Assembly: GCA_051251595.1 (NCBI GenBank)
Contig: JBPOFA010000016.1
Location: forward strand, 10,626 to 74,625
Direction of reading: 5' to 3'
Origin: Marinosulfonomonas sp.
GTDB lineage: Bacteria > Pseudomonadota > Alphaproteobacteria > Rhodobacterales > Rhodobacteraceae
DNA: 64,000 nt
The first letter of the stretch is position 1. Each line of letters begins with the position of its first letter. Position numbers and translations under genes: made by a program. The notes beneath the pieces are model-generated. The model worked only from the letters and a program-made list of their open reading frames with translations. It had not been told where the DNA came from and did no database searches. Below, piece after piece: positions 52,905 to 61,077 of the stretch.

Positions 52905-53012
52905 AATCCCGAGGTTAACGTTTGAAAAGAAAGGGAAAACCACGGTCTGCCTTGCGTCGGCACCCTGTCGGCAAAGCGTATGGCACTTTGTCGGCTTTGA
53001 CCGGGGTTAAGC

Positions 53013-53025
53013 CTGCGTGCGGTGG
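53013..53025 (+). repeat. Fourth copy of CTGCGTGCGGTGG
   Basis: Exact 13-mer match to 52875-52887. It lies 62 nt upstream of the ParB-like start. Confidence 0.6.
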
Positions 53026-53086
53026 TGTTGGACATTTGTGGGGAATTGGGATGTGCTGCCAGTGTCGTCATCACGAAGGGCTTGGC

Positions 53087-53488
53087 ATGGAGCATCCAGA
53101 GGTTATCCGCGAATATTGGTATTCGATCGACTGGGATGTCGAGACGCTGTGGGCGTTGGACCTGCCGGTGGAGACGGTCGATCTGGCGCGTTTGATCTGG
53201 CATTTGGACGTGCCGATCTGGGCGGATGGGGGGCGGCCTTATTCTGTCACGCCGCGCCAGGTGATGGGGGACCCGGCCCGGTTTGCGGTGGAAGCGGCGC
53301 GGATCGCTGCGGCGGATTTGGCCTTTCCCCTAGAGGTTTTTGAAAACAAAGGCCGGTTGATGATTTTGGACGGTGTGCACCGGTTGGCAAGGGCCGTTGA
53401 GCTGGGCCATGACAGGATTAATGTGCGCTTTGTTCCGGCATCGGCGGTGACCCGTCTGGACGGCGATGCCGGGGCTTTGCCGGTTTAA
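53087..53488 (+). CDS. Small ParB/sulfiredoxin-like N-terminal-domain protein
   Basis: ORF 52922..53488. Start taken at ATG 53087 (MEHPEVIREYW), preceded by GAAGGG. The C-terminal half contains LMILDGVHRLARAVELG, resembling the ParB/Srx DGxHR box. The family call is tentative. Confidence 0.5.
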   Translation: MEHPEVIREYWYSIDWDVETLWALDLPVETVDLARLIWHLDVPIWADGGRPYSVTPRQVMGDPARFAVEAARIAAADLAFPLEVFENKGRLMILDGVHRLARAVELGHDRINVRFVPASAVTRLDGDAGALPV

Positions 53489-53517
53489 ATCGTAAAAAAT
53501 TTTGCAAAATGGTAAAC

Positions 53518-53534
53518 CTGACTAAAAAAGTCGG
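53518..53534. promoter_or_regulatory. IscR type-1 / Iron-Rhodo-box-like operator (cTGACT-aaaaa-AGTCgg)
   Basis: The GACT-N5-AGTC core (53520-53532) with an A/T spacer matches the core of the IscR type-1 consensus ATASYYGACTRWWWYAGTCRRSTAT. It sits in an AT-rich region 115 nt upstream of hemP. Confidence 0.45.
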
Positions 53535-53548
53535 ATTGACATATCCGA
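53531..53548. promoter_or_regulatory. Perfect 6-6-6 inverted repeat TCGGAT-tgacat-ATCCGA overlapping a TTGACA -35-like hexamer
   Basis: Read directly. It shares 4 nt with the preceding operator-like site. Confidence 0.35.
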
Positions 53549-53648
53549 TCAAATCACTCAGGTATGGAATCATTATTCTAGCCACCCAGTTCGCTGCGGA
53601 AGCCCGACATTGATGCAATGAAAGGAATCCGTTTATGGGGTATCGCAG

Positions 53649-53813
53649 ATGAGTGAGTTAAGAGACACAATCGTTACACCACCTGTGCTGGATATTCCCA
53701 CACATGACGCGCGGGAACTGACGCGGGGCGGGGATCAGGCGCAGATCGTCTATGACGACAAGGTCTATACGCTGCGCATCACGCGCGCAGGCAAGCTGAT
53801 TTTAACAAAATGA
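53649..53813 (+). CDS. hemP: Hemin uptake protein HemP family (54 aa; below the ORF-track cutoff)
   Basis: Hand translation gives MSELRDTIVTPPVLDIPTHDARELTRGGDQAQIVYDDKVYTLRITRAGKLILTK. The C-terminal Y-x-LRIT-x-x-GKLILTK is the HemP signature. The stop overlaps the next start (ATGA at 53810-53813). Confidence 0.7.
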   Translation: MSELRDTIVTPPVLDIPTHDARELTRGGDQAQIVYDDKVYTLRITRAGKLILTK

Positions 53814-54289
53814 CAGATCGGGTTCTTAATCGCGGCGGGGCGGCTGTCGGCTTTATGTCTGATTTGAATTCAGTCGAAGCAGCGACCGTGGACTGCCTGC
53901 GTCGGTGGAGCGATGGGCCAGAGGCCCAGGCCGATCTGTGGAATGACATGTCTTCGGCGATGGGGTCGCAAAACGCGCGACGCGCGGTGCAGTCTTTTGA
54001 TCAGCTTTACGGTTTATGTGCCCGGTTCGGGCGGCGCAAACTGATGCGTCATTCCGTGGCCTGCGAATGTCTGGGCGCTGACGAGGCGTGTTTTGCCAAT
54101 TTTATCGGGGCGGCGGCGGATGGCCAGCGCGAGGATGCAATGATGATTGCAACCCTGCTGGTGCGTGCGGATTACGCCCCAATCGTGACAACGCTGGCCA
54201 CGGATTTCGGCATGGCCTTGAGGCATCTGCCCTGTCCGGCAGGGCGTGCTGTTTTGATGGATACAAAAACAACCACAACTCTTCATTAG
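53810..54289 (+). CDS. Hypothetical protein with a His/Cys cluster (H81-x3-C-x-C-x5-C)
   Basis: 159 aa, translationally coupled to hemP and ending 10 nt before the imelysin gene. I recognise no family. Confidence 0.55.
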   Translation: MTDRVLNRGGAAVGFMSDLNSVEAATVDCLRRWSDGPEAQADLWNDMSSAMGSQNARRAVQSFDQLYGLCARFGRRKLMRHSVACECLGADEACFANFIGAAADGQREDAMMIATLLVRADYAPIVTTLATDFGMALRHLPCPAGRAVLMDTKTTTTLH

Positions 54290-54299
54290 AGGGACTAAT

Positions 54300-55562
54300 A
54301 TGAAGAAAATTTATTTATTGTCGTCGGTCTTTGGACTGGCGCTGGCGGCACCCGCATTTGCGGTCGAGAAATCAGCCGTTTTGGAAAATTACGCCAATAT
54401 GGCAGAGGCTGGATTTCAGGACAGTCTGATTGGTGCGGAGCGTTTGCAAGCCGCCGTGGCAGAGCTGGTCTCTGACCCGTCGGCAGAGCATTTGCAGGCG
54501 GCGCGGGATGCGTGGCTGGCTGCGCGCGTGTCCTACCAGCAGACAGAGGTGTTCCGTTTTGGCAATGCCGTCGTGGATGACTGGGAAGGCAAAGTGAATG
54601 CCTGGCCCTTGGACGAAGGTCTGATCGATTATGTGGACGGGTCTTATGGCGGTCCTTCGGATGAAAACGAATTTGCGGTTCTGAACGTGATTGCGAACCC
54701 GACATTCACCTTGTCTGGGAAAGAGATCGACGCCAGCAACATTACGCCGGCCCTGTTGTCGGACACTTTGCAAGAGGCCGACGGCATCGAAGCAAATGTT
54801 GCGACAGGGTATCACGCGATTGAGTTTTTGCTGTGGGGCCAGGATCTGAACGGCCACGCCCATGGGGCGGGCAACCGGCCTTGGACGGATTATGCAACGG
54901 GTGATGACTGCACGAACGGCAATTGCGACCGGCGCGGTGCTTATCTTGCTGCGGCGAGTGAATTGTTGGTGTCCGATCTGGACTATATGGTGGCGCAGTG
55001 GGGTGCGGATGGCATCGGGCGCACGACTTTGATGGACAACGAAGACAGCGGAATTTCCGCCATGCTGACCGGCATGGGATCCCTGTCTTATGGAGAGTTG
55101 GCCGGTGAGCGCATGCGTCTTGGCGTCATGCTGAACGATCCTGAAGAAGAGCAGGATTGTTTTTCTGACAACACCTATAACAGCCATTTCTACGACGTTC
55201 TGGGCGTTCAGAACGTCTATTTGGGGCGCTATGTGCGCAGCAATGGCGACGTCGTGACGGGGCCGTCCTTGTCGGATCTGGTTCTGGAAGTGAACCCAGA
55301 GCTGGACACTGAAATCCAGGTCAAGATCGGGGCGACGATCATGGCGATGACGCTGATGAAAACAGCGGCTGAGGCTGGCTTTTCTTACGACCAGATGCTG
55401 GAACGCGGCAATGTTGCGGGCGAGGCGTTGATCATGGGGGGCGTGGATGCGTTGGTCGATCACACGCGGTCGATTGAACGCGCGGTTTCGGCGCTTGGGC
55501 TGGACCAGATCGCCTTTGAGGGATCCGACAGTCTTGATGATCCAGACGCTGTGTTCCAGTAG
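54300..55562 (+). CDS. Imelysin family protein (peptidase M75-like / IrpA-type iron-regulated protein)
   Basis: Signal peptide MKKIYLLSSVFGLALAAPAFA and the imelysin GxHxxE motif in TGYHAIEFLLWGQD. Confidence 0.85.
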   Translation: MKKIYLLSSVFGLALAAPAFAVEKSAVLENYANMAEAGFQDSLIGAERLQAAVAELVSDPSAEHLQAARDAWLAARVSYQQTEVFRFGNAVVDDWEGKVNAWPLDEGLIDYVDGSYGGPSDENEFAVLNVIANPTFTLSGKEIDASNITPALLSDTLQEADGIEANVATGYHAIEFLLWGQDLNGHAHGAGNRPWTDYATGDDCTNGNCDRRGAYLAAASELLVSDLDYMVAQWGADGIGRTTLMDNEDSGISAMLTGMGSLSYGELAGERMRLGVMLNDPEEEQDCFSDNTYNSHFYDVLGVQNVYLGRYVRSNGDVVTGPSLSDLVLEVNPELDTEIQVKIGATIMAMTLMKTAAEAGFSYDQMLERGNVAGEALIMGGVDALVDHTRSIERAVSALGLDQIAFEGSDSLDDPDAVFQ

Positions 55563-55573
55563 GATTTTGAAAC

Positions 55574-57088
55574 GTGAAGTCAAATCTTCTGGCCTTTGCA
55601 GCCATTCTGATGGGGTCAGCCGTTTCGGCTGCCCCCACAGACGAGCCACATCTGAGCATAGTACCCCGGACTGAAAAAGAAGCAGCCCGGATTTCAGCCG
55701 TCACCAAACCCACCACGGATTTTTCCGCCGCTTCGAAATTCGAAGAGCGCCCGGGTGGGGCCGCGACGGTTCGGGTTCGTCCGAATGCGAATGCGTTTTC
55801 GCAATCTTCGGCGAACCTGAGTTTTGAAGATGAACTTAATTTTCGCGTCGGCAATGGGCTGTTTCGCAAGCTGTGGGTGTCTGCCCCATCTTCGACACTG
55901 GCCTCTGACGGGTTGGGGCCGATTTACAATGCCCGGTCCTGTCAGCGTTGCCATTTGAAGGACGGTCGCGGGCATCCGCCCGAAGGACCGGACGACAATG
56001 CAATTTCAATGTTTTTACGCATCTCAATTCCCGGTGGTCCGGATGATGGGATTGCCGAGATTGAAGATTACCTTGCCACTTTGCCAGACCCGCATTACGG
56101 CACCCAGATGCAGGATTTTTCTGTGGCGGGCGTGCCAGCCGAATACCGGTTGGACATCACATATGAAGACCTTCCGGTAACCTTGGCCGACGGCACGGTG
56201 GTTACCTTGCGCAAGCCTACCTATCGCGCCGAGGATCTGGGCTATGGGCCTTTGCATCCTGATGCGATGCTTAGCCCACGTGTCGCACCGCAGATGATCG
56301 GGCTGGGTTTGCTAGAGGCTATTCCAGCGGCTGATATTCTGGCCCATGCGGATCCGGATGATCTGGATGGGGATGGTATTTCGGGGCGTCCGAATATTGT
56401 GTGGTCCGATGAATATGACACGGCCATGCTGGGGCGTTTCGGGCTCAAGGCCGGTGCGCCAACGATCAAACAGCAATCCGCGGGGGCGTTCCGCGGGGAT
56501 ATTGGGATCGGGTCGCCTTTGTACCCGACACCGCAAGGGGAATGCACCGATTTGCAGACCGTGTGTCTGGATGCGCCAGACGGGGATACGGATGTTCCTG
56601 GCGTGGAAATCGATCAGGAAGGCTTGGACATGGTCACGTTCTATAGCCGCAACCTGGCGGTTCCGGCGCGCCGTGGTGTGAATGACCCAGAGGTGTTGCG
56701 TGGAAAAGAGATTTTCTACAACACCGGTTGCATATCCTGCCACACCCCATCTTTTGTGACGCATCGTCTGGAAGACCGGCCAGAGCAAAGCTTTCAGCTG
56801 ATCTGGCCTTACACAGACATGTTGCTGCATGACATGGGTGAAGGTCTGGCCGATCACCGCCCTGAAGCCCGCGCAACGGGCAGTGAATGGCGCACGGCAC
56901 CTTTGTGGGGTATCGGCTTGACGGAACAGGTCAGTGGGCACACATACTTTTTGCACGACGGACGCGCGCGCAACATCCTGGAAGCGGTGCTTTGGCACGG
57001 TGGAGAGGCGCAACCAATGCGTGACGCTGTCGTCGAACTTTCAAAATCTGACCGCGATGCTTTGATCGCTTACCTGGAAAGTCTGTAA
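55574..57088 (+). CDS. DUF1111 di-haem cytochrome c-type oxidoreductase (peroxidase-like)
   Basis: GTG start with signal peptide MKSNLLAFAAILMGSAVSA. Two CxxCH haem-binding motifs (CQRCH, CISCH). C-terminal WHGGEA is typical of DUF1111. Confidence 0.85.
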   Translation: MKSNLLAFAAILMGSAVSAAPTDEPHLSIVPRTEKEAARISAVTKPTTDFSAASKFEERPGGAATVRVRPNANAFSQSSANLSFEDELNFRVGNGLFRKLWVSAPSSTLASDGLGPIYNARSCQRCHLKDGRGHPPEGPDDNAISMFLRISIPGGPDDGIAEIEDYLATLPDPHYGTQMQDFSVAGVPAEYRLDITYEDLPVTLADGTVVTLRKPTYRAEDLGYGPLHPDAMLSPRVAPQMIGLGLLEAIPAADILAHADPDDLDGDGISGRPNIVWSDEYDTAMLGRFGLKAGAPTIKQQSAGAFRGDIGIGSPLYPTPQGECTDLQTVCLDAPDGDTDVPGVEIDQEGLDMVTFYSRNLAVPARRGVNDPEVLRGKEIFYNTGCISCHTPSFVTHRLEDRPEQSFQLIWPYTDMLLHDMGEGLADHRPEARATGSEWRTAPLWGIGLTEQVSGHTYFLHDGRARNILEAVLWHGGEAQPMRDAVVELSKSDRDALIAYLESL

Positions 57089-57089
57089 T

Positions 57090-58103
57090 ATGAAGACCCT
57101 GGCACTTGTTTTGGCATTGTCATTGCCCTCTGCGGCAATGGCGGATCACAGTGAAGACGTTGTTGAAAACGTTATTCAGCACCATATTTTGCCAGGGTTT
57201 GAACGGTTGAGTGAACAAGCAGATCGGCTGGCCGAGGTGGCTGGCCGATCTTGCAAAGCTGATAGCGCAGAGTTGCGCGCACAGTATCAGGATACGTTTG
57301 ACGCCTGGATCGCGGTCAGCCATTTGCGGTTCGGCCCGACAGAGGTTGACGACCGCGCTTTTGCGCTGGCGTTTTGGCCAGACAGCCGCGGGGCGACGCC
57401 CAAAGCGTTGAATGCGTTGATTGCGAACGAGGATCCGATTGCGGGTTCCGTTGAGGACTATGCCAGCGTGTCGATCGCCGCGCGTGGTTTTTATGCGTTG
57501 GAATTCTTGCTGTATGATCCGGTGATTTCGACGGAAGGGCAGGATGGCTATCGCTGTCAGCTGATCCAGACGGTGACCGCCGATATTGCCCAAAACGCGG
57601 ATGAAATTCTGGACGATTGGGAAAATGGCTATGCGGCGTTGCTGATGGATGTGGATGGCAGCGGGCTTTATCGAAGTGAAGAGGAAGCCGCGCAGGAATT
57701 GTTCAAGGCGCTGTCGGCGGGTTTGGAATTCACCTCTGAGACGCGGCTGGGACGCCCGATGGGAACCTATGACAGACCGCGCCCGAAACGGGCGGAAAAC
57801 TGGCGGTCGGGACGGTCTTTGCGGAATGTTTATGTTTCCATTGAAAGCCTGAAGGGGCTGGCCGTGGCCTTGTCCGACGATGATCCCGAACTTACCGGGG
57901 AACTGGTCGAGGCTTTTGACGAAAGCCTTGAGCAGGCTCAAAAACTGGACGACCCGATCTTTGCGGGTGTGGCAACACCAAAAGGACGGTTTCGGGTTGA
58001 ATTGCTGAAGAACTCTATCGAGCAGGTACGCCATGTGGTCCGGGATGAACTGGGCCCAAGTCTGGGCGTGGCGTCTGGGTTCAACGCGATGGATGGAGAC
58101 TGA
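57090..58103 (+). CDS. Imelysin family protein, second copy (motif His replaced)
   Basis: Signal peptide MKTLALVLALSLPSAAMA. The homologous motif reads RGFYALEFLLYDP: the Glu is kept and the His is replaced by Tyr. Confidence 0.8.
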   Translation: MKTLALVLALSLPSAAMADHSEDVVENVIQHHILPGFERLSEQADRLAEVAGRSCKADSAELRAQYQDTFDAWIAVSHLRFGPTEVDDRAFALAFWPDSRGATPKALNALIANEDPIAGSVEDYASVSIAARGFYALEFLLYDPVISTEGQDGYRCQLIQTVTADIAQNADEILDDWENGYAALLMDVDGSGLYRSEEEAAQELFKALSAGLEFTSETRLGRPMGTYDRPRPKRAENWRSGRSLRNVYVSIESLKGLAVALSDDDPELTGELVEAFDESLEQAQKLDDPIFAGVATPKGRFRVELLKNSIEQVRHVVRDELGPSLGVASGFNAMDGD

Positions 58104-58105
58104 TC

Positions 58106-59176
58106 ATGGCCAACAGACGGCAGTTTTTGGCGGGGCTTTTGGCCGCTGGAATGGTTCCCAAGCCCAGCTGGGCGGATGCCGGTGGGCCGGCCTATTTGTC
58201 GGCAGCGGGCTTGCCAAGCGGCGGCTATGCCCTGTGCGGGATCGGCGCGAACCGGGAGGTTCTGTTCCAGATCACCTTGCCCAGCCGGGGCCATGCCGCA
58301 GCGGCACATCCCACAAGGCCAGAGGCCGTCGCTTTTGCCCGGCGTCCGGGGACCTTTGCGATCGTTTTGGACTGTTCTGATGGTCGGGTGAAAACCAGGC
58401 TTGAATCCCCAGAGGGGCGGCATTTTTACGGGCATGGGGCGTTTTCCGGCGATGGGCAATGGCTGTTCACGACGGAGAATGACTATGAGGCGGCAGAAGG
58501 GCGCATTGGCGTTTGGGACGTGGCTGCAGGCTATGCCCGCGTGGATGAGTTTGCCAGCGGGGGCACCGGCCCCCATGATTTGAAACGCCTGCCGGGATCA
58601 GAGGTTCTGGTTGTGGCCAATGGTGGGATTGAAACCCATCCCGATGCGGGACGGGCCAAGTTGAACATCGCGACGATGCAACCCAATCTCAGCTATCTGG
58701 AAGACGGGCAGGTGGTGGAACAGGCGCGTCTGTCCCCCGATCTGCATCGCAACTCCATACGGCATCTGGCGGTGTCAGAGACCGGGCAGGTTGCGTTTGG
58801 GATGCAATGGCAGGGCGATGGCGCTGCGCCTGCGCTTGTTGGGCTGCACCGTCGCGGTGCAGAGGTTCAGCTGTTTGACAGCCCCGAGGAGGAGCTGCAT
58901 CGCATGGGCAATTACATCGGCAGCATTGCCTTTTCAGAGGATGAAAGCCGGGTTGCTGTGACCTCTCCGCGGGGGGGGCGGGTGCAGCAATTCGATGTTG
59001 AAACCGGGGTTTTCGCCGCCGGTCTGGATATTGAGGATGCCTGCGGTGTCGCAGCACAGCAGGGCGGTTTTGTTGTCACCACCGGGCAGGGCAATATTGA
59101 TGCGGTCACGGGCCAGCAGATTACGCCGTTTCAGGTGCGCGATCTGATGTGGGACAATCATTTGATCCCGGTTTGA
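58106..59176 (+). CDS. DUF1513 domain-containing protein (Tat-exported, beta-propeller-like)
   Basis: Twin-arginine signal MANRRQFLAGLLAAGMV. Its size and its position as the last gene of the imelysin/DUF1111 cluster are typical of DUF1513. Confidence 0.8.
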   Translation: MANRRQFLAGLLAAGMVPKPSWADAGGPAYLSAAGLPSGGYALCGIGANREVLFQITLPSRGHAAAAHPTRPEAVAFARRPGTFAIVLDCSDGRVKTRLESPEGRHFYGHGAFSGDGQWLFTTENDYEAAEGRIGVWDVAAGYARVDEFASGGTGPHDLKRLPGSEVLVVANGGIETHPDAGRAKLNIATMQPNLSYLEDGQVVEQARLSPDLHRNSIRHLAVSETGQVAFGMQWQGDGAAPALVGLHRRGAEVQLFDSPEEELHRMGNYIGSIAFSEDESRVAVTSPRGGRVQQFDVETGVFAAGLDIEDACGVAAQQGGFVVTTGQGNIDAVTGQQITPFQVRDLMWDNHLIPV

Positions 59177-59281
59177 TCCTGGTCGCTGTTTGCGGCTAGG
59201 CCCAAACGGGTTGAGTGTGCCTGAAGGCTGTTCTATTGGCAGGGAAAGGGGCGGTTTGCCCTGCCAAACAGGGGCCGTGTG

Positions 59282-59773
59282 ATGAAAGACGTTCGAATTG
59301 TCGTAACCGGTGGAACCATCGACAAAATCCATGACCCGGCGACAGAGTCCCTCGCTTTTGCCGCGGATGGCAGCACGCATTTGCCAGAGATCCTGTCGAT
59401 GAGCCGCTGTCACTTTCCCACGGTCGATCTGTTGATGCTGAAAGACAGCCTGTATTTCGATGACGCCGACCGCGAGGCGATCACCGACGCGGTTCGAAAC
59501 GCACCGGAACAGGCCATTGTTGTCACCCACGGCACCGGCACGATGGGGGAAACAGCCCGCTGGCTTGCGCCGCGCATCACCGGTAAAACCGTTGTGCTGA
59601 CCGGGGCAATGCGCCCGCATTCGCTAAGCTTTTCTGACGGGCCGTTTAATCTGGGCGGCGCCATTGTGGCGGCGCAGATCATGGATGCGGGGATTTACGG
59701 CGTGATGAATGGCCGTGTGTTCCACGCCGAAGAGCTGAACAAAAACACAGAGCTGGGCCGGTTTGACGCCTGA
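59282..59773 (+). CDS. Asparaginase N-terminal-domain-only protein
   Basis: 163 aa. MKDVRIVVTGGTIDK carries the asparaginase TGGTI nucleophile motif and HGTGTM follows. No C-terminal domain is present. Confidence 0.65.
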   Translation: MKDVRIVVTGGTIDKIHDPATESLAFAADGSTHLPEILSMSRCHFPTVDLLMLKDSLYFDDADREAITDAVRNAPEQAIVVTHGTGTMGETARWLAPRITGKTVVLTGAMRPHSLSFSDGPFNLGGAIVAAQIMDAGIYGVMNGRVFHAEELNKNTELGRFDA

Positions 59774-59895
59774 ACGGCTGATGTCAGCGCATCCCAAATT
59801 TTTACAGTCGTTTTGGGGTGTGGGTCTTGATCGTGTTACAACTAGAGGCTTTCACTGGCCCCATCACAAAGCCTTTCATTCTGGAGATTGAATTC

Positions 59896-61077
59896 ATGAA
59901 ACGAATTTCCGCAGGTGTCATCGCAAGTTTTTTGATTGCACCCCTTCCTGGACACGCACAGGAGCTTAGGACGGATGAAGGCACGCCGGCCGGGCTTGAG
60001 ACAGAGGCATGGTCCAGCTATGAGGATTTCCTGAACCGCACCAAATTCAAAAGCTTTTACGGGCAATTGAGCCTGGGGACGCTGATCTATGACGATGGCG
60101 TGCAGACCAAGGGCTATCCGGTTCTGGACAATGGCAATTCGGGCACTCGTTTTGGGTTCGTCGTCTCCTCGACAGAGCTGTTGGACGATTGGCGCGTGTC
60201 TGGCCATTTCGAAATGAGCGTTGCGACGGTTTCCACCTCTGGGGCGAATGTCATCAGTCTGAACCCGGATTACGGTCTGGACGTGTTCGGGTTGCGGATT
60301 GCTGAACTGACATTTCAAAGTGACAGCTACGGCAAGATCTGGGTCGGGCAAGGGGCCATGGCATCGGATGGGGCCTCTGGCGTTGACCTGTCTGGAACCA
60401 CGATCGTTGCCAGTTCCTCTGTTGCGGATAGTGCAGGGGGGCAGTTGCTGCGCACCACAGGCGGGGCGGTGTCGAACATTGCGATTGGGGATAGCTTTGC
60501 GATTGACAGCGGGCTAAGCCGGAAATTGCGCCTGCGCTATGGCACGCCTGATCTTGGCGGCTTTGATCTGCGCGGGTCGGTTGGCTACGACGCGCTGAAC
60601 AATGACACAACGGTGCTGTATGACCTTGCGGCGGTGTTCGGCGGGTCCGCAGGCGTGGGAGAGGCCTATTCCTACAGGGCGGCTGTGGCGGTGTCCAAGC
60701 CGGCAAGCTCTGACGCTTTGGTCAACGGATCGGTGTCGGTGCTGCATGAACCCACAGGGCTAAGCCTGACCGGCGCGATGGCGGCAGAGTATCACACGGA
60801 CAGAACCGGGCGCTATTCCTTCGTGAAGGCGGGGTATCAAAAGCAGTTCTTTGACGTGGGCGCCACGGCGTTTTCGGTGGATGCGTATTTCGGCAGCGAC
60901 ATCGACGCGCCGGGGGCGGACAGCCGGTCTTATGCCTTGTCCGTTGTGCAAAACTACGACCGCACCAAAGCAGAGATCTACGGCACGGTGCGCAGCTATG
61001 ACTATTCCAATTCCAGCGGCTCTGTCGGCTACCGCAACGGCCTTGCCGTGTTTACGGGGCTGCGCCTGAAGTTCTGA
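59896..61077 (+). CDS. Outer-membrane porin
   Basis: ORF 59818..61077. Start at ATG 59896, preceded by GGAG. Signal peptide MKRISAGVIASFLIAPLPGHAQE, alternating beta-strand pattern rich in G/S/Y/D, and C-terminal LRLKF. Confidence 0.75.
   Translation: MKRISAGVIASFLIAPLPGHAQELRTDEGTPAGLETEAWSSYEDFLNRTKFKSFYGQLSLGTLIYDDGVQTKGYPVLDNGNSGTRFGFVVSSTELLDDWRVSGHFEMSVATVSTSGANVISLNPDYGLDVFGLRIAELTFQSDSYGKIWVGQGAMASDGASGVDLSGTTIVASSSVADSAGGQLLRTTGGAVSNIAIGDSFAIDSGLSRKLRLRYGTPDLGGFDLRGSVGYDALNNDTTVLYDLAAVFGGSAGVGEAYSYRAAVAVSKPASSDALVNGSVSVLHEPTGLSLTGAMAAEYHTDRTGRYSFVKAGYQKQFFDVGATAFSVDAYFGSDIDAPGADSRSYALSVVQNYDRTKAEIYGTVRSYDYSNSSGSVGYRNGLAVFTGLRLKF

Follow-up and report, generated by a model that had tools for sequence, protein, structure and literature searches.

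A hemP–orf159-led imelysin/DUF1111/DUF1513 gene cluster in Marinosulfonomonas sp. under predicted iron control

We analysed a gene cluster in a 64,000-nucleotide stretch of DNA from Marinosulfonomonas sp. (hereafter the window), which lies on contig C8 (GenBank JBPOFA010000016.1) of assembly GCA_051251595.1; the assembly comprises 4.19 Mb and is 100% complete. Six open reading frames (ORFs) follow one another on the plus strand—hemP, orf159, imeA, a gene for a di-haem c protein of the DUF1111 family, imeB and a DUF1513 gene (Table 1)—with intergenic distances of −4, 10, 11, 1 and 2 nt, the first of which is an ATGA overlap. The last four genes, referred to here as the quartet, encode the domains PF09375, PF06537, PF09375 and PF07433 in this order, all far above cut-offs, and are separated by 11, 1 and 2 nt. 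The original prediction, made from the bare sequence, had listed these six genes with their coordinates and gaps and had assigned three Sec signals and one twin-arginine (Tat) signal; ORF calls, Pfam searches and inspection of the N-termini agree with it throughout. Judged by eye, three of the products start with Sec-type signals (MKKIYLLSSVFGLALAAPAFA/VE, VKSNLLAFAAILMGSAVSA/AP and MKTLALVLALSLPSAAMA/DH), and the DUF1513 protein starts with MANRRQFLAGLL, which is of the Tat type. All four quartet products are predicted to be exported, and a permease is not among them. The locus is almost certainly an icmP/irpA-type quartet operon led by hemP–orf159, and its homologues come from genomes with roseobacter genus names (Sulfitobacter, Yoonia, Roseovarius and Loktanella).

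Table 1. Genes and sequence elements of the cluster (window coordinates)
Feature	Position	Strand	Evidence
Iron-Rhodo box 1, AACCTGACTAAAAAAGTCGGATT, predicted IscR/RirA-type operator	53515–53537		27.2 bits, genome rank 1
TTGACA, −35-like hexamer bridging both boxes (putative promoter element)	53536–53541	+	read from sequence
Iron-Rhodo box 2, TATCCGATCAAATCACTCAGGTA, predicted operator	53542–53564		23.0 bits, genome rank 4
hemP, HemP/HmuP-family small regulator, 54 aa	53649–53813	+	Pfam PF10636, 4e-16
orf159, predicted cytoplasmic all-helical Cys/His protein, 159 aa	53810–54289	+	Pfam: no match
imeA, IcmP/IrpA-type imelysin, 420 aa, Sec signal	54300–55562	+	Peptidase_M75 (PF09375), 7e-81
Di-haem c protein, DHOR/DUF1111 family, 504 aa, Sec signal	55574–57088	+	PF06537, 5e-100, plus Cytochrom_C
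imeB, IPPA-type imelysin, 337 aa, Sec signal	57090–58103	+	Peptidase_M75 (PF09375), 1e-52
DUF1513, predicted seven-bladed beta-propeller, 356 aa, Tat signal	58106–59176	+	PF07433, 1e-122
GC-rich hairpin GGCAGGG...CCCTGCC, possible terminator	59238–59265	+	read from sequence, 3' of last gene

Footprinting of the regions upstream of hemP in 17 relatives reveals a shared motif, CTGA-N9-TCAG, which has an A/T-rich centre and is often present as a pair spaced by 27 bp. It corresponds to the Iron-Rhodo box described by Rodionov et al. (PMC1698941), and in Rhodobacter sphaeroides it is the target of IscR, an iron–sulphur (Fe–S)-binding regulator with a single Cys (Remes et al. 2015, PMC4618611). Scanning the genome with a matrix for 23-bp boxes, built from 20 sites 5' of hemP in relatives and excluding the window's own sites, gives five sites of at least 20 bits, as opposed to none in a reversed-sequence control. 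The two boxes ahead of hemP are among the top-ranking sites (Table 1), and their 27-bp tandem spacing is also found in loci L038–L041. A second tandem pair with the same spacing (C34:325087/325114, span 325087–325136) lies ahead of a gene for a siderophore/catechol-type ATP-binding cassette (ABC) binding protein, a single box of 24.7 bits (C12:243669–243691) lies ahead of a gene for an FbpA-like binding protein, and another top site precedes a SUF assembly gene.

The genome encodes a single-Cys IscR (...KPCPAVP..., containing the PCPAV motif; C12:235856–236254) and also a three-Cys RirA/NsrR-like Rrf2 protein. As is characteristic of the Iron-Rhodo regulon, predicted palindromes of ~19 bp and of the cTGAc-N-gTCAg type at the promoter are thus found together with a cognate single-Cys IscR in the same genome. 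The repressor would be either this Rhodobacter-type IscR or its RirA/NsrR-like paralogue. In R. sphaeroides, IscR sites overlap the −35/−10 region (PMC4618611), and the two boxes flanking and overlapping TTGACA in the window would fit repression by promoter occlusion; a promoter scan found no full −35/−10 pair at this hexamer. Another palindrome, TGA-N9-TCA (ATTGACATATCCGATCAAAT), surrounds TTGACA and arises because two palindromic boxes stand in tandem. We rejected it as an operator, as a genome scan for TTGA-N9-TCAA gave 106 matches that are mostly intragenic and show no iron theme. The boxes are located ~85–130 nt 5' of the hemP ATG, compared with ~250–300 nt 5' of the aligned HemP core in most relatives (L038–L057), and the leader or N-terminus is therefore longer in the relatives. 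We conclude that the locus is very probably under iron control, and the gaps and the genome-wide ranks of the boxes confirm the earlier description of one tightly packed unit behind an iron-type operator. From this packing we infer that all six genes are co-transcribed.

The original prediction treated iron regulation of the quartet as merely predicted. This is no longer tenable, since it has been demonstrated for orthologues. In R. sphaeroides, the operon hemP-irpA(RSP_1548)-bfd-bfr-RSP_1545-1543 is co-transcribed from the hemP promoter and upregulated in a ΔiscR mutant, and IscR shifts the hemP promoter (PMC4618611). In Pseudomonas aeruginosa and Vibrio cholerae, the clusters PA4370–PA4373 and VC1264–VC1267 are Fur-regulated, and two imelysin structures have been solved (Xu et al., PMC3143127).

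The R. sphaeroides operon resembles the one in the window in that hemP comes first and is followed by an imelysin, a di-haem 'thiol oxidoreductase', a signal-peptide protein and a hypothetical protein, the last two being the counterparts of imeB and DUF1513 by position. Both genomes also encode a single-Cys IscR, and in both the hemP promoter carries an Iron-Rhodo box. A hemP-first, iron-repressed version of the cluster is therefore already known and has been characterised experimentally in a related bacterium. What is new in the Marinosulfonomonas copy is the insertion of orf159 between hemP and the imelysin, the lack of bfd–bfr (from the operon and from the genome), and the presence of two tandem promoter boxes with no internal box. 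The icmP (PA4370–73) and irpA (VC1264–67) operons have the same four families in the same order, are likewise iron-repressed and come without a permease; here, too, the first imelysin has a GxHxxE motif, the second lacks the His, and a di-haem protein is present. Unlike the window with its Rrf2-type boxes, they are controlled by Fur and are described without hemP or orf159. The claim that the quartet recurs in proteobacteria is well founded, as matches to DUF1513 above the Pfam cut-off occur in 66 of 401 Pseudomonadota sampled and, within the family, in 96 of 201 sampled genomes.

The two imelysins belong to different types. ImeA carries the motif GYHAIE, which conforms to GxHxxE, and matches IcmP (PDB 7xrx) at 6.5e-112, whereas the corresponding motif of ImeB is GFYALE, with the His replaced by Tyr as in the IPPA family, and its match is IPPA itself (PDB 3pf0, 2.8e-11). 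IcmP has been described as outer-membrane associated; ImeA, by contrast, has a plain Sec signal and no lipobox. The di-haem protein contains two CXXCH motifs, CQRCH at residues 123–127 and CISCH at residues 386–390. Pfam annotates DUF1111 as a putative di-haem peroxidase, and searches of PDB chains, including those of CCP and MauG, with phmmer or with a profile of eight sequences gave no match.

In most relatives, the imeA and di-haem genes are separated by an insert consisting of bfd and bfr, a gene for a Porin_4-like outer-membrane protein, or both; the Porin_4-like gene is found inside the cluster in three relatives. Only two of the nine clusters examined, those of the window and of locus L042, are free of an insert. 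The distance from orf159 to DUF1513 is 4464 bp, and among intact clusters of the family sample only that of genome G135 is shorter.

The genome is poor in other iron genes. We found no match to the Ferritin family (Bfr/Ftn/Dps), for which 14 of 14 control genomes gave matches, no match to FTR1/EfeU (PF03239), no convincing match to FeoB and no HemS-family gene. A single TonB-dependent receptor is encoded on the minus strand of a 2.7-kb contig (C49:6–1892), where it is cut by the contig end, and no Iron-Rhodo box was scored upstream of it. The inventory for iron storage and uptake is thus unusually bare for a roseobacter. Since an intact quartet persists in this genome without ferritin or FTR1/EfeU genes, our data argue that the quartet is independent of bacterioferritin and of an EfeU-type permease.

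The orf159 protein gave no match in Pfam, in NCBIfam, or in the PDB with sequence or profile searches, and it has no signal peptide. Homologues form 34 clusters in a collection of 5.8 billion proteins, all of them unnamed and without Pfam domains, and a profile search recovers weaker homologues in ~20 other alphaproteobacterial families. By these comparisons, orf159 represents an undescribed, unnamed protein family that is found in alphaproteobacteria only. Its signature is R-x4-H-x3-C-x-C-x-G-x-D-E plus an invariant C-terminal His. Across 32 aligned sequences, eight positions never vary (L19, R31, R76, H81, G89, D91, E92 and the C-terminal His, H159); the cysteines C85 and C87 are kept at 96%, and C94 is not conserved. 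The description of the product as a Cys-cluster protein is therefore only partly correct: H81, C85, C87 and the C-terminal His hold, and the rest of the cluster is lost once distant homologues are included. The AlphaFold2 (AF2) model is confident and all-helical (predicted local distance difference test (pLDDT) 87, predicted template-modelling score (pTM) 0.80) and has no neighbour among PDB folds, the best Foldseek match having an E-value of ~1 and template-modelling (TM) scores not exceeding 0.35.

Two further loci illustrate the spread of the family. In a genome of another alphaproteobacterial family (L060:428–1968), a distant homologue, ...YHQPCCACLGADE...LLVH, is encoded directly 5' of bfd and bfr on the same strand, which constitutes a second, hemP-independent iron context for orf159. 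The relative G086 encodes tandem orf159 paralogues (C6:64851–65813; E-values of 1e-24 and 1e-14).

HemP scores 59 bits against PF10636 (cut-off 25), with the C-terminal core ...YTLRITRAGKLILTK, and hemP is a single-copy gene in the genome. Members of the HemP/HmuP/ChuP group are small, haem-binding positive regulators of TonB-receptor genes and not parts of a transporter (10.1101/2022.02.10.479982). The window HemP resembles them in its small size, in its match to PF10636 and in being encoded by the first gene of an iron-repressed operon, but its gene is not located beside a haem receptor or hmu genes and is instead paired with orf159. This pairing is widespread, as hemP stands immediately 5' of orf159 in 26 of 29 loci, often with the ATGA overlap. 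When 20 of the orf159 loci were extended to 18 kb, the quartet was found downstream in eight, and hemP–orf159 stood alone in 12, followed by unrelated genes that are mostly on the opposite strand. In the family sample, orf159 is present in 66 genomes and DUF1513 in 96; both are present in 52, in 26 of which they are no more than 9 kb apart. The pair hemP–orf159 thus forms a two-gene unit of its own, for which association with a downstream quartet is frequent but not obligatory. The products of the pair are cytoplasmic and most likely regulatory. Since the orf159 protein has a signature of the Cys2His2 type, is cytoplasmic and is translationally coupled to HemP under an Fe–S-sensing operator, its features suggest a sensor of metal, Fe–S or haem, or a partner protein.

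The DUF1513 protein is predicted to be a seven-bladed beta-propeller. Its AF2 model (pLDDT 89, pTM 0.87) is all-beta, and the strands form seven four-stranded blades. Outside WD40 proteins, the best Foldseek matches are the beta subunit of QHNDH (1jju_B), the beta subunit of hydrazine synthase (5c2v_B), the heavy chain of AADH (2h47) and Escherichia coli YncE (3vgz), with E-values of ~1e-10, TM scores of ~0.6 and sequence identities of 12–15%. The first three are propeller subunits that belong to haem-c redox enzymes of the periplasm. Like these proteins, DUF1513 would be a periplasmic seven-bladed propeller of ~330 residues, and its gene lies beside that of a di-haem c protein. Unlike them, it has a particular set of invariant His residues and a Tat signal.

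Conservation was assessed with 25 sequences from distant Pseudomonadota that share 32–61% identity. Invariant residues include the Tat arginine R5 and the histidines H63, H110, H157, H220 and H352, as well as R61, R79, E124, R183, R219, Y270 and the W349-D350-N351 stretch; the RR motif of the Tat signal is kept in 25 of 25 proteins. In the model, H63, H110, H157 and H220 are spaced approximately one blade apart on equivalent strands. This blade-interval His pattern, together with the Tat export, points to a possible binding site for a metal or a cofactor at the hub of the propeller. On a bolder and doubtful reading, DUF1513 would hold a metal centre built from one invariant His per blade, similar to the CuZ propeller of nitrous-oxide reductase, and catalysis or metal transfer by the quartet would be centred on this protein. 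Price et al. guessed in their preprint that DUF1513 is an outer-membrane component; in view of the Tat signal and the confident model of a soluble propeller, we do not favour this assignment.

Few iron-regulated gene sets of Gram-negative bacteria that lack an assigned reaction are as widespread as the quartet. The original prediction called its molecular function unresolved, and this still applies: a literature search (imelysin with DUF1513, DUF1111, PA4370–73 and IcmP) returned no paper that establishes its biochemistry. Quartet genes are cofit in transposon screens of several bacteria and have chlorite and metal phenotypes, from which ferrous-iron uptake was guessed (Price et al., bioRxiv 10.1101/072470).

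We regard it as probable, if far from certain, that the locus is an iron-repressed unit of two modules, hemP–orf159 and the quartet, the second of which is proposed to perform periplasmic iron chemistry. When iron is sufficient, an Fe–S-loaded Rrf2 repressor would occupy both tandem boxes and block transcription. A shortage of iron or of Fe–S clusters would free the promoter and lead to the expression of HemP and orf159 as a regulatory pair and of a periplasmic, permease-less metal-redox set. The periplasmic di-haem protein would then oxidise Fe(II), with peroxide or O2 as the oxidant, the imelysins would capture the resulting Fe(III), and the captured ion would be passed to an ABC importer of the Fe(III) type that is encoded elsewhere and the binding-protein gene of which is under the same predicted operator. 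DUF1513 would be a subunit of the di-haem enzyme that binds metal or acts as a scaffold.

Taken on its own, the chemistry of Fe(II) oxidation and Fe(III) capture is a tentative proposal that may well prove wrong. We put it forward because of the analogy with iron binding by EfeO/EfeM, since M75 domains are known to bind Fe(II) and Fe(III) (EfeM; PMC9174327). EfeUOB and EfeUOB-M offer the most plausible functional analogy, as they too place a periplasmic M75 metal-binding protein beside a haem peroxidase. The differences are considerable: the genome has no EfeU/FTR1 permease, haem is carried by a di-haem c protein of the DUF1111 family and not by a DyP-type EfeB, a cupredoxin domain is absent (NCBIfam EfeO, 15 bits versus a cut-off of 270), and the quartet includes an additional propeller protein.

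Several observations count against the two-module account with its periplasmic iron chemistry. The quartet comes with no permease and the genome contains neither FTR1/EfeU nor a true FeoB, so that the partner for the hand-over of Fe(III) is a guess; the gene for the FbpA-like protein is not followed by obvious permease genes. The published sensitivities to chlorite and metals do not prove iron uptake (10.1101/072470), and the structures matched by the DUF1513 model are those expected for any seven-bladed propeller, with many WD40 proteins scoring alike. Partial uncoupling of the two modules is also possible, given that hemP–orf159 is autonomous elsewhere and that a terminator-like hairpin of eight pairs followed by TGCTGTTTTG lies within the 3' end of orf159 (54228–54246); as the region has 16 terminator-like motifs where 7.6 are expected, this hairpin may be due to chance. 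Finally, P. aeruginosa IcmP has been reported as a partner of ModA, a protein secreted by the type VI secretion system, in molybdate uptake (PMC8602904). Molybdate uptake through the IcmP-type protein of the window seems unlikely, because the control is of the iron type and ImeA has no lipobox.

The alternative that deserves most attention, although we consider it unlikely, is a periplasmic defence against oxidants, in which the main task of the quartet would be to clear oxidants such as peroxide, or to prevent Fenton reactions of Fe(II) in the envelope while iron import is switched on, and not to supply iron. The peroxidase annotation of DUF1111 fits this role, one DUF1513 mutant is specifically chlorite-sensitive (10.1101/072470), and the DUF1111 protein of Dinoroseobacter shibae is induced by peroxide in a RirA-dependent manner (PMC8007024). 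Imelysin is also mentioned in papers on the peroxide response of Leptospira. However, the operator in the window is of an iron/Fe–S type shared with uptake genes and not that of a peroxide regulator, and two imelysins of the metal-binding type are hard to explain by detoxification alone. According to work cited in PMC3143127, IrpA of Synechococcus is moreover needed for iron-limited growth.

Extraction or processing of haem by the exported proteins, with HemP marking a haem system, appears improbable. The original prediction regarded the link to hemP as strengthening a role in haem acquisition. It is true that hemP heads the operon, that HemP proteins of other systems are haem-binding and regulate haem receptors (10.1101/2022.02.10.479982), and that the DUF1111 protein of D. 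shibae varies in parallel with proteins of haem uptake (PMC8007024). Nevertheless, hemP does not point to haem uptake here, because HemP is a regulator and not a transporter, haem-uptake genes are missing from the genome (no HemS, and a single TonB receptor on another contig), and hemP–orf159 is autonomous, standing alone in 12 of 20 loci. Conversely, 44 of the 96 DUF1513 genomes of the sampled family have no orf159. The imelysin site, furthermore, is a site for metal ions (PMC9174327).

A MauG-like maturation, in which the di-haem protein would oxidatively modify DUF1513 or an imelysin into the carrier of a protein-derived cofactor and would have no small substrate, is quite improbable as well. 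QHNDH and AADH carry protein-derived quinone cofactors, and the AADH cofactor is matured by a di-haem enzyme; propeller subunits of both are among the best neighbours of the DUF1513 model, and Tat export of DUF1513 is strictly conserved. These matches are, however, those expected of generic propellers, sequence comparison with PDB chains gives no detectable relationship of DUF1111 to MauG or CCP, and there is no gene for a small cofactor-bearing subunit.

Very improbable, finally, is a role of the cluster in loading or unloading bacterioferritin, as Rodionov et al. suggested for irpA (PMC1698941): although R. sphaeroides and several relatives have bfd–bfr inserted between imeA and the di-haem gene, and the distant orf159 homologue of L060 is encoded directly 5' of bfd–bfr, Bfr resides in the cytoplasm and the quartet proteins are exported, the quartet is intact in a 100%-complete genome without a ferritin-family gene, and gamma-proteobacterial operons are listed without bfr (PMC3143127).

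Returning to the iron-repressed two-module unit, one can extend it to a joint reading that is possible but doubtful: orf159 would found a family that senses iron, Fe–S or haem through the ligands H81, C85, C87 and the C-terminal His and that, together with HemP, tunes the iron regulon after derepression, and a DUF1513 metal centre would form the core of the quartet. The main value of the locus lies in hemP–orf159 as a distinct module with an undescribed family, in a quartet that persists without ferritin or EfeU, and in a residue-level hypothesis for DUF1513. Two leads are testable, namely the undescribed Cys/His protein, the genes of which accompany hemP and iron operons throughout alphaproteobacteria, and the conserved His residues of the predicted Tat-exported propeller. 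The question of what the quartet does is approachable in P. aeruginosa, V. cholerae and R. sphaeroides, and the locus described here adds leads to it and not a breakthrough.

Upstream of the cluster, ORF 52922–53488 has no Pfam or NCBIfam match at E ≤1 and is absent beside hemP in all 29 related loci. Downstream, the GC-rich hairpin 3' of DUF1513 (Table 1) was missed by the terminator scan because it lacks a T-run. It is followed by two ORFs that we considered as parts of the system, an asparaginase-like and a porin-like one; in none of 20 relatives is a homologue of either encoded at a distance of up to 9 kb from the cluster, and both were therefore dropped. The first (59279–59773, 164 aa) begins 102 nt 3' of DUF1513 and aligns with asparaginases in their N-terminal domain only (Pfam, 8e-26). 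The second (59818–61077) has no Pfam match and is not kept beside the cluster in relatives; read from an internal Met, it would encode an outer-membrane-protein-like product of ~393 aa with the signal MKRISAGVIASFLIAPLPGHAQE and the C-terminal sequence ...GLRLKF.

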